From assembly GCA_020048645.1 (NCBI GenBank), contig JAIFMG010000120.1:1-12788 (forward strand): DNA of 12,788 nt. The letters are read 5' to 3'. Shown piece by piece: positions 5,975-7,582 of the stretch. The notes below the pieces were generated by a model. The model did not search any database and was not told where the DNA came from. It was given only the letters and a program-made list of their open reading frames with translations. The translations under genes were made by a program, and so were the position numbers. Each line of letters begins with the position of its first letter. Positions within the stretch are counted from its first letter, which is position 1. This DNA comes from Bacteroidota bacterium. GTDB lineage: Bacteria > Bacteroidota > Bacteroidia > Bacteroidales > UBA6013.

Positions 5975-7153
5975 TCAAGGCCGCAGCACCTCGCGCGCGA
6001 AAATGACCTCGTCGGCGATGGCCAGCACGTCTTGGCAGACCCCGTCGGCCGTCTTGGAATCGTTGATGTACTGGTTGAGCGATTTGAAAAGCTCTTGCGA
6101 GATCTTGCCCAGGTCCTGGCTGGCCCAGTTTTCGAGCATGTGGTCGAACACGGCCTTGGCGTCGCCGTTGGTGCAGACGATGGGCAGAACGGGCAGGTTC
6201 TCCTGGGCGGCGTACTGGTAGGTCTCGAAAGTGCCCCCTTGCCCGCCGATCAGGATGACCAGGTCGGCGGCCTTCAGGCTTTCGAGCCACTCGGTGGGGC
6301 CGGGCGGCACGTGGCGGATGCTTCCTCCCTTGAACTGGGGCTGCTGGCCGGTGGGCACCACCTGCGTCAGGCGGTCGGACAGCCTTTGCCCCTGGGCCAT
6401 GACGACCTGCGCGAAGGCCTCGGAAACCACATAGTCCACGCCCTGCCAGCCGCCAGTGATGAGCTTGTAGCCCTGCTCGGCGATGCGCCTGCCCAGGCTC
6501 TGGCTGACCCAGAGGATCTCGTCGGGCAGCGTGAAGGCGCCCGTGCCCGCCACCAGGATGCTGCGATGGGCGCGCGTGGCCACGTTGTCGCGGCGGATGA
6601 CCTGGGTCATGGACTCGATGAAGCCGTCGAAGTTGGTCTCGGGGTTGATGCTGAGCTTGTCGCTGATGAAGTTGACGAAATCGTCGATGCCATCCGCGAT
6701 CTCGTAGATCTTCTTGGCCACTCCCATCAGGGCGAAGTCGTCCTCGCGGTCCAGGATTCCATCGACCATTTCCTGGATCTTGCGCTTCTGCTGGCGCCAG
6801 TGCTCCACGTAGGCGAACTGCCCGTCGTGGCTGTAAATGTCGGCGTCGGAGAGCACGATGGGGAAGACCCGCTGCTCGTAGCCTTTGGAGCGGATGATCT
6901 CCACGGCCTCGAACATGCAGTACTCCGAGCGGAGGTACTTGTCGCTCAGCACGACGATGACGTAGTTGCCCTTGCCGATCTCGTGCATGAACTCGCGGAT
7001 GCTGTCGCCCAGGGTGAGCGTGGCCTTGTCGCGCACGATCTTGTAGCCCAGCTCGTTGAGCTTGTCGCAGATGCGGTCCACCAAGGCCTCGCGGCTTTGG
7101 CCCAAGGCGGATTTGTTGTCCTTCCAGGCGTAGGAAATGTAGATGTTGTTCAT
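5975..7153 (-). CDS. TIR-domain / SLOG (LOG-like Rossmann) fusion protein, 392 aa. Putative NAD+/nucleotide-processing conflict-system protein.
   Basis: The N-terminal roughly 125 aa, MNNIYISYAWKD...LGYKIVRDKATLTLGDSI...YVIVVLSDKYLRSEYCMFEAVE, follows the TIR_2-type pattern (IFISY..D; VIVVLS..YL.S.YC..E, with the Glu at the position of the TIR NADase catalytic glutamate). The C-terminal roughly 200 aa, SILVAGTGAF...YKLITGGWQGVDYVVSEAF...RHVPPGPTEW...ADLVILIGGQGGTFETYQ...PIVCTNG, matches LOG/SLOG-family motifs (GGxxG...; the PGGxGTxEE-like IGGQGGTFE). Confidence 0.8.
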   Translation of the reverse strand: MNNIYISYAWKDNKSALGQSREALVDRICDKLNELGYKIVRDKATLTLGDSIREFMHEIGKGNYVIVVLSDKYLRSEYCMFEAVEIIRSKGYEQRVFPIVLSDADIYSHDGQFAYVEHWRQQKRKIQEMVDGILDREDDFALMGVAKKIYEIADGIDDFVNFISDKLSINPETNFDGFIESMTQVIRRDNVATRAHRSILVAGTGAFTLPDEILWVSQSLGRRIAEQGYKLITGGWQGVDYVVSEAFAQVVMAQGQRLSDRLTQVVPTGQQPQFKGGSIRHVPPGPTEWLESLKAADLVILIGGQGGTFETYQYAAQENLPVLPIVCTNGDAKAVFDHMLENWASQDLGKISQELFKSLNQYINDSKTADGVCQDVLAIADEVIFAREVLRP

Positions 7154-7171
7154 GCTCTTGGGGTGTGGAAA

Positions 7172-7582
7172 TCAGTTTCGGAGCCAGTTCAGGGCATCTT
7201 CCATCGTATCGAAGTAGGCCACCTGCACCAGCCCGATTCCGCCCTCTTCCATGACCTGCTCCACGGAAACGCGGGTGAAAATATCGTGCGGCACGATGAA
7301 GGCTACCTTTTTCACGCCCAGCCGGACGGCGGCGGCATTGATGTTCTCATCGATCCATACCTGGGTCTCAGGGGGGATGGTATATCTGAACTGCCGGAGA
7401 TCATGCAAGATCAAGCTCGGCTTGAAAGGGGCGATGCCCTTTTCCAAGGACAAGGCAAAATCCTCGCGCAGCGCCGCGTCGTTGGCTTCTTCGGAGACTT
7501 CATGCCAGTGGTTGACCATGAGCCCGGTGGCAATCTCGAAGGTGATACGCCTGAAGGATGAGTTGAAAACGGTTTCTTCCAT
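7172..7582 (-). CDS. Small hypothetical alpha/beta protein (tentatively STAS/SpoIIAA-like), 136 aa, co-transcribed upstream of the TIR-SLOG gene
   Basis: The gap to the TIR-SLOG ATG is 18 bp on the same strand. The start was placed at the internal Met (MEETVFNSS...). The 57-codon 5' extension of the ORF track (to 7753) is low-GC, contains two hairpins, and has non-protein-like composition. The C-terminal part, VKKVAFIVPHDIFTRVSVEQV...VAYFDTMEDALNWLRN, resembles the end of STAS domains (F.t.eeAl.WL). The fold assignment is tentative. Confidence 0.5.
   Translation of the reverse strand: MEETVFNSSFRRITFEIATGLMVNHWHEVSEEANDAALREDFALSLEKGIAPFKPSLILHDLRQFRYTIPPETQVWIDENINAAAVRLGVKKVAFIVPHDIFTRVSVEQVMEEGGIGLVQVAYFDTMEDALNWLRN

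Follow-up and report, generated by a model that had tools for sequence, protein, structure and literature searches.

The stretch of DNA analysed here, referred to as the window (12,788 nucleotides, contig JAIFMG010000120.1 of the Bacteroidota assembly GCA_020048645.1), carries on its minus strand a gene for a 392-amino-acid (aa) protein with a TIR domain at its N terminus and a SLOG domain at its C terminus, preceded by a small gene encoding 136 aa. The two had been singled out in an original prediction, made from the sequence alone, as a two-gene cassette forming a candidate conflict system based on nicotinamide adenine dinucleotide (NAD+) or other nucleotides. Both open reading frames (ORFs) were found exactly where they had been placed, on the minus strand and with 18 bp separating the upstream 136-aa ORF from the 392-aa ORF, and both start codons were confirmed by homologue alignments, which open at the same Met in each case. 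The identical window locus was found again in several metagenomes. The two genes, and the domains of the larger product, are laid out as follows.

5975..7153, minus strand: TIR-SLOG gene, 392 aa plus stop codon (ORF; four Pfam models above gathering threshold; homologues; AlphaFold2 (AF2) model)
6842..7153, minus strand: TIR domain, aa 1-104
6578..6841, minus strand: three-helix linker, aa 105-192 (AF2 helices 109-133, 140-165 and 175-192)
5978..6577, minus strand: SLOG domain, aa 193-392
7172..7582, minus strand: 136-aa STAS/SpoIIAA-like gene (ORF; Pfam SpoIIAA-like, AF2 fold)

With the gathering thresholds of Pfam as the pass mark for domain assignment, hidden Markov model searches bore out the predicted fusion. 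The N-terminal part matched TIR_2 (53.4 bits against a threshold of 28, aa 4-122, E = 4.7e-14) and TIR (33.8 bits against 21.3), and the C-terminal part passed both LDcluster4 (PF18306; 36.0 bits against 26.3, E = 6.7e-9) and STALD (PF18185; 34.6 bits against 24, E = 1.7e-8), two SLOG families that were reportedly defined by Burroughs and colleagues in 2015. A TPALS-type SLOG domain, to which the original prediction had alluded, gave no Pfam match at E ≤ 1, the matches obtained being to LDcluster4, STALD and TIGR00725. Among the NCBIfam models, TIGR00725 and the LOG-family model TIGR00730 were both matched below threshold, and with TIGR00730 reaching 17.7 bits where 96.35 are required, over aa 199-237 only, a LOG identity was rejected. 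PADLOC models for the ThsA STALD domain and one for the ThsB TIR domain matched at about 1e-8 (ThsB, 4e-8), and none of the PADLOC whole-protein defence models matched the 392-aa protein. No SIR2 domain was detected in it by Pfam or PADLOC, the N-terminal domain being a TIR, nor was an EAD or TCAD adaptor domain detected by Pfam.

The AF2 model, computed from 26 homologues, has a mean predicted local distance difference test score (pLDDT) of 84.5 and shows the TIR domain (aa 1-104), three long helices (aa 109-192) and the SLOG domain (aa 198-392) in succession. The sole segment with a pLDDT below 50, aa 46-50, lies in the model where the BB loop of the TIR domain would be expected. Fold searches were in accord with the sequence models: Foldseek put ThsA structures in first place, RPS4 and RPP1 were the best matches for the TIR fold, and the SLOG domain has the rossmannoid SLOG fold together with both glycine-rich loops.

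Residue conservation was judged over 26 full-length homologues, and three elements stand out:

6908..6910, minus strand: codon of Glu82, putative catalytic glutamate of the TIR domain (invariant in 26 homologues; PDB profile alignment)
6431..6454, minus strand: GGWQGVDY loop, aa 234-241, first SLOG glycine-rich nucleotide loop (conservation)
6221..6247, minus strand: GGQGGTFET motif, aa 303-311, SLOG GGxGTxE-type loop and helix start (clade conservation)

In the TIR domain, the segment S76-E77-Y78-C79-M80-F81-E82 is invariant or nearly so and E82 itself is invariant; a PDB profile search aligned it with the catalytic Glu (WCxxE motif) of the plant TIRs L6, RPV1 and Roq1. The first SLOG loop (G234-G-W-x-G-V-D-Y241) is invariant over the TIR-SLOG clade and is also present in EAD11-SLOG and SLOG-TIR relatives, while the second (G303-G-x-G-G-T-x-(E)-T311) is kept across the clade, with E310 nearly invariant (D or N in two sequences). 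Further invariant or near-invariant SLOG residues are V201-x-G203-T204-G205, P272-x-F274-x-G276-G277, E288-W289 and T328-x-G-D-A-K333. The conserved TIR glutamate and the SLOG motifs quoted in the original prediction are therefore real. Taken together, these results identify the 392-aa protein as a true fusion of TIR and SLOG, with a catalytic-type Glu in the TIR domain and the SLOG nucleotide loops intact.

About 40 clusters of full-length homologues (43-64% identity) were recovered, mostly from Nostoc, Anabaena, Trichormus, Leptolyngbya, Alkalinema and Oscillatoria, that is, mainly from filamentous cyanobacteria, with a few in Cytophagales and other Bacteroidota. P0002, the closest relative at 64% identity, belongs to another organism, one sampled together with that of the window. 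The median identity of the window protein to the other homologues is 68% for the TIR domain, 41% for the linker and 58% for the SLOG domain, and the median pairwise ratio of nonsynonymous to synonymous substitution rates is 0.08, 0.25 and 0.11, respectively, the linker being the least constrained; both the TIR and the SLOG domain are thus under strong purifying selection. The spread of the family is patchy, crossing phyla at 56-64% identity, and decayed copies occupy the syntenic site in two Nostoc genomes (L031, 8001-8807, and L032, 8001-8417), one lacking residues ~231-328, i.e. the SLOG core, and the other ending after residue 142. Cells can therefore do without the gene, and the decayed copies, along with the patchy cross-phylum spread, suit an accessory, horizontally exchanged gene. 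Searches of plasmids and phages returned no close TIR-SLOG copies. The most distant plasmid match was to a protein with TIR-SLOG-like coverage (24.6% identity over 86% of the query), encoded in an unannotated part of a 3.2-Mb replicon of Burkholderia stagnalis (L077, 7001-7963).

Both halves of the protein recur in other combinations. The TIR domain and linker occur without a SLOG domain in 67 of 71 TIR-only relatives, some of which (~245 aa) have nothing else attached and others of which are fused to EAD7, TCAD2, SIR2_2, Lcl_C or FGE-sulfatase domains. The relatives of the SLOG domain were sorted in a domain-order census with a clade-specific TIR profile, from which the following figures derive: 41 proteins have an N-terminal TIR and linker followed by SLOG; nine have an N-terminal TIR directly before SLOG without a long linker (SEFIR plus TIR_2 by Pfam); 45 carry, after SLOG, a long C-terminal extension that escapes the clade-specific profile and is recognized as TIR_2 by Pfam in most cases; 13 have an N-terminal extension without a TIR match, EAD11-SLOG and kinase-SLOG examples among them; and 17 consist of little besides the SLOG domain. 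In one SLOG-TIR example, P0292, the TIR domain best matches the PADLOC model for the SAVED-TIR effector of the cyclic-oligonucleotide-based antiphage signalling system (CBASS). Outside the TIR fusions, some members of the SLOG clade have as their partner EAD11, a PD-T4-6-like Ser/Thr kinase, a CHAT protease or a ThsA-like SIR2, the last in the order SLOG-SIR2.

A single SLOG clade is thus joined to three TIR clades and in both domain orders. As judged from these architectures, the TIR-SLOG fusion arose at least three times independently, with a marked preference for TIR, and such repeated fusion, along with the swaps onto other effectors, is expected of a ligand sensor with interchangeable outputs. 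Moreover, each module has close relatives with EAD7, EAD11, TCAD2, SIR2 or CHAT domains, and by this sequence-based measure both domains derive from conflict-system domain families.

Two further observations concern individual clade members. P0330, P0333, P0336, P0344, P0340 and P0348 are kinase, CHAT or SIR2 fusions, P0340 and P0348 being the SIR2-linked ones, and lie on short contigs that do not reach to neighbouring genes. In Methylobacterium radiotolerans (L074, 1-10460), the SLOG-TIR protein P0292 is encoded beside a 923-aa Patatin protein, a 1056-aa WD40 protein, an Nmad2 protein and a TIR-Pterin_4a fusion, a neighbourhood that looks like an uncharacterised conflict locus.

By analogy with ThsA, the reading that we favour, with a probability of roughly 0.5, is that the 392-aa protein acts as a stand-alone, single-chain TIR NADase gated by a ligand, akin to ThsA in its mode of action yet distinct from it. 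The C-terminal SLOG domain would bind a small nucleotide-derived ligand, most plausibly of the adenosine diphosphate ribose (ADPR) type; binding would alter the oligomeric state of the protein, and the new state would gather the N-terminal TIR domains so that Glu82 could cleave or cyclise NAD+, the consumption of which would lead to cell arrest or death. The source of the ligand would not be encoded alongside, and might be a TIR or other enzyme elsewhere in the genome, a cellular metabolite (as for SARM1) or the protein's own TIR domain. We infer ligand binding, oligomerisation, an NADase output and a role in conflict from the two domains and Glu82, the failed LOG model, the membership in a SLOG clade with variable effectors, the purifying selection and the patchy spread. 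STALD-type SLOG domains are predicted nucleotide sensors and the SLOG domain of ThsA binds 3' cyclic ADP-ribose (3'cADPR), which we likewise count in favour.

The ligand pocket of ThsA was compared in part with the SLOG domain of the window protein. Published work on ThsA places S288/S290, F357, R371, K388, G399 and E403 in the 3'cADPR pocket, E403 touching the ribose of the ligand. A partial HMMER alignment sets the GGTxET segment of the 392-aa protein opposite 'SGVMDE' of SeThsA, with E310 at most one residue from the inferred position of E403, and, by motif order only, T204, F274 and G306 are plausible equivalents of ThsA S288/S290, F357 and G399. The sequence similarity of the window SLOG domain to that of ThsA is marginal (PDB profile E = 0.04), and the window protein differs from ThsA by its long three-helix linker. 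Type I Thoeris pairs its effector ThsA, a SIR2-SLOG protein activated by 3'cADPR, with an adjacent thsB gene, whereas the protein of the window is a TIR-SLOG fusion and its gene lacks a thsB in any locus examined; with no SIR2 domain and no thsB neighbour, it is therefore not a member of the ThsA/Thoeris type I family.

Several observations weigh against this ThsA-like reading. No adjacent signal-generating gene, thsB-like partner, cyclase or STAND NTPase was found in the window or in the related loci examined, and for none of the close homologues was a defence-island context found (neighbours being judged by Pfam and manual annotation); stable synteny in Nostoc and the host-like GC content at third codon positions (GC3, 0.92) of the gene in the window are less typical of defence genes. 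In sequence and fold the TIR domain is nearest to TIRs of the plant TIR-nucleotide-binding-leucine-rich-repeat (TNL), AbTir and ThsB types, and thus resembles signal producers rather than the known effector TIRs. The acidic SLOG residues D240, E288 and D331, all invariant, and the nearly invariant E310 would also suit catalysis, and an equivalent of ThsA Arg371 is not evident, the corresponding region appearing, again from the order of the motifs only, to hold the invariant E288-W289.

The acidic residues bear directly on a different explanation, in which the protein is a tandem of two enzymes: a catalytic SLOG domain, LOG-like N-glycosidase or ADPR-processing, would act on the product of the TIR domain or on another nucleotide to yield a signal, a toxin or nucleotide depletion. 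The retained LOG-type motifs fit this proposal, as do the prediction by Aravind and colleagues that ADPr derivatives are produced or processed by some SLOG domains and the EAD11-SLOG proteins, which put SLOG in the effector or signalling-enzyme position of EAD-coupled systems. However, the LOG model scored far below its cut-off, the best fold matches include non-catalytic binders, and a clade joined to so many effector domains behaves as a sensor. LOG catalysis needs an Arg-Glu pair; not one Arg of the SLOG domain is invariant among the 26 homologues, which argues weakly against LOG-type catalysis. The same absence, the failed family model and the fusion to TIR set the window protein apart from the LOG cytokinin-activating phosphoribohydrolases, and on balance we consider a catalytic SLOG domain unlikely.

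The producer-like TIR domain instead raises the possibility of a self-contained Thoeris in one chain: the ThsB-like TIR would make a cADPR-type isomer, to be bound by the SLOG domain of that molecule or of one next to it, and this feed-forward would end in NAD+ depletion with no other gene needed. Support comes from the TIR matches already described (PADLOC ThsB model; plant TNL and AbTir proteins in the PDB profile search; RPS4 and RPP1 folds), from the resemblance of the SLOG domain to the 3'cADPR-bound SLOG of ThsA, from the isolation of the gene, which stands solo in all 40-plus loci examined, and from the repeated independent fusion in both orders, which argues for a direct chemical link. 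Set against this, no infection-sensing element is identifiable, the linker being the only variable region; an NADase with positive feedback and no outside trigger would pose a danger unless kept under tight control; and in the sister SLOG-TIR proteins the TIR domain has the look of a CBASS effector rather than of a generator. A one-chain Thoeris is therefore doubtful in our view.

The ThsA-like reading has counterparts in several known systems that couple a sensor to a TIR output. TIR-SAVED and TIR-STING of CBASS and Cat1 (CARF-TIR) of type III CRISPR follow a like logic, with SAVED, STING or CARF as the sensor where the window protein has SLOG, but no cyclase or CRISPR operon lies near the TIR-SLOG gene and its TIR clade is closer to the plant TNL and ThsB types. 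SARM1 (ARM-SAM-TIR), which is gated by the ratio of nicotinamide mononucleotide to NAD+, offers an analogy only, as its ARM domain is unrelated to SLOG and the window protein is without a SAM oligomerisation domain. The EAD-coupled NTPase conflict systems of multicellular bacteria (Kaur et al., 2020) share the bias towards filamentous cyanobacteria and Bacteroidota, and relatives of the modules carry EAD7, TCAD2 and EAD11; the window protein itself, however, has no EAD or TCAD domain, and no STAND, vWA-MoxR or GTPase core gene of the EAD-coupled type is adjacent to its gene.

The association of TIR with SLOG is already known computationally, since STALD denotes a Sir2/TIR-associating SLOG whose members are predicted to sense nucleotides and since Aravind's group mentions "TIR-SLOG-based antiviral systems". 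A literature search found no experimental study of any TIR-SLOG fusion, in agreement with the original prediction, which had called the function of such proteins undemonstrated, and a systematic survey of TIR signalling from 2025 explicitly excluded stand-alone TIR proteins. Being compact, strongly conserved and in no need of a neighbour, with at least three independent fusions, TIR-SLOG makes a tractable test case for two questions, namely whether a SLOG sensor is able to gate a TIR output and whether generator and sensor can coexist in one chain. To our knowledge, every characterised bacterial TIR-signalling system (Thoeris I, II and IV, type III being uncharacterised) separates signal maker and effector into different genes. 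The identity of the ligand would widen the known chemistry of ADPR-derived signals; should the protein prove to be a plain ThsA analogue answering 3'cADPR made elsewhere, the gain would be modest.

The upstream gap of the TIR-SLOG gene in homologous loci is typically 90-500 bp, so that the gene is monocistronic and solo. The site is conserved in Nostoc, where the gene is flanked by selO and an ABC-transporter gene, with bioB, a GNAT gene, a histidine-phosphatase gene, an SMI1/SUKH gene and generic toxin-antitoxin modules nearby. Neighbours in other lineages encode an AEC-type transporter, phosphoribosyl pyrophosphate synthetase, an SdhA-like flavoprotein, ArsA, an HTTM protein, MqnA/B, a DEAD helicase, FecCD and a TPR glycosyltransferase. 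According to the original prediction, a setting of the homologues that is consistently housekeeping and not defence would speak against the proposal; as far as context goes, this is what was found. Gene neighbourhood nevertheless provides context only and leaves room for a single-gene system: a conflict or NAD+ function is plausible from the logic of the domains, and the neighbourhood adds nothing to it.

Housekeeping neighbours everywhere and a syntenic position over many Nostoc species would suit a role outside conflict, either in NAD+ or nucleotide homeostasis or in developmental cell death or dormancy of filamentous bacteria, rather than in defence against phage. Strong purifying selection, host-like codon usage, the lack of close copies in the plasmid and phage searches and the enrichment of the family in multicellular cyanobacteria point the same way, but the patchy spread, cross-phylum transfer and decayed copies do not, and both modules recur with the conflict domains EAD, TCAD, SIR2 and CHAT, while the gene for a sister SLOG-TIR protein neighbours those for Patatin, Nmad2 and another TIR protein. 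We hold a non-conflict role to be improbable. It is similarly a long way from probable that the family constitutes a one-protein second-messenger switch for immunity or suicide, in which the protein's own SLOG domain would read the ADPR-derived signal of its TIR domain, or an NAD+ metabolite as in SARM1, making it a partner-less, self-amplifying NADase at a stable chromosomal site in filamentous cyanobacteria. Such a switch might be of use for altruistic cell death inside a filament no less than for defence against phage.

We turn now to the 136-aa gene, which the cassette of the original prediction cast as a regulator or antitoxin-like partner of TIR-SLOG. Its product matches the Pfam SpoIIAA-like model at E = 1.6e-4, below the gathering threshold (the same model is matched by 19 of 30 relatives), and its AF2 model (pLDDT 89) shows weak fold likeness to RsbS, SpoIIAA, SiaC and SLC26 STAS domains. 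A word-indexed database search with the protein returned the self-match only; a full HMMER search gathered 1230 representative clusters, mostly of ~133-136 aa. This large, unnamed STAS/SpoIIAA-like family has invariant Q74, W76, F124, A130 and W133.

Partnership is suggested by the shared strand and the 18-bp spacing, by the lack of a Bacteroidetes-type -7 motif between the two genes and by the fact that STAS-fold proteins are often regulatory partners. Comparative genomics, however, has essentially refuted it. When 46 loci were searched by tblastn, the 136-aa protein was present in the six copies of the window locus only; it was missing from all 39 related TIR-SLOG loci and from all three loci of the closest relative P0002. 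In the reverse direction, none of 16 sampled metagenome loci of the 136-aa family had TIR-SLOG nearby, and no conserved neighbour was found among them. The GC3 of the two genes differs as well (0.75 for the 136-aa ORF, 0.92 for TIR-SLOG). The adjacency is lineage-specific and the small gene is a neighbour, not a conserved partner; that it should nonetheless regulate or counteract TIR-SLOG is highly improbable. Co-transcription of the two genes in the window is possible. A longer form of the small ORF with a TTG start (193 aa) has no Pfam match, and the homologue alignments open at the Met of the 136-aa form.

The remainder of the window, which derives from a metagenome-assembled genome of high GC content, is of a housekeeping character. 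One flank carries resB and ccsA (cytochrome c biogenesis), thrC and a DHOD-like gene; the other carries genes for two TlpA/ResA-like thioredoxins, greA, a major-vault-protein-like gene and a DUF5074 gene. The GC3 of the TIR-SLOG gene lies within the range of these neighbours (0.84-0.94), that of the 136-aa ORF below it. No tRNA genes and no meaningful flanking repeats were found in the window. On the stop side of the TIR-SLOG gene, towards the convergent tlpA-like gene, lies one structural element:

5920..5951, strand not assigned: GC-rich hairpin between the TIR-SLOG stop and the convergent tlpA-like (thioredoxin) gene (RNA fold, inverted repeat I1)

This hairpin has a perfect 11-bp GC-rich stem and a 10-nt loop (RNA fold -27.4 kcal/mol, z = -2.5), is U-rich on its plus-strand side and is probably a terminator shared by the tlpA-like and TIR-SLOG genes; a consensus terminator scan missed it because the loop is long.

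A scan for sigma-70 promoters gave no match, and no Bacteroidetes -7 motif (TAnnTTTG) was found upstream of the TIR-SLOG or the 136-aa gene. One motif of this type, TATATTTG, occurs at 10034-10041 on the minus strand, within the 494-aa resB ORF; as it lies just upstream of the 449-aa resB start used by other gene calls, the shorter start is favoured. With no further -7 motif from resB to the hairpin, resB, ccsA, the 136-aa ORF and TIR-SLOG could share one transcript, a speculative arrangement suggested by the distribution of motifs.

A 612-aa ORF on the plus strand (5723-7561) runs antisense over both the TIR-SLOG and the 136-aa genes and most probably arises merely from the high GC3 (0.75-0.92) of these minus-strand genes. 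Finally, the gene at 1412-3907 on the plus strand encodes 822-831 aa resembling eukaryotic major vault protein (Pfam MVP_shoulder and, weakly, Vault_3), which is unusual in a Bacteroidota genome.

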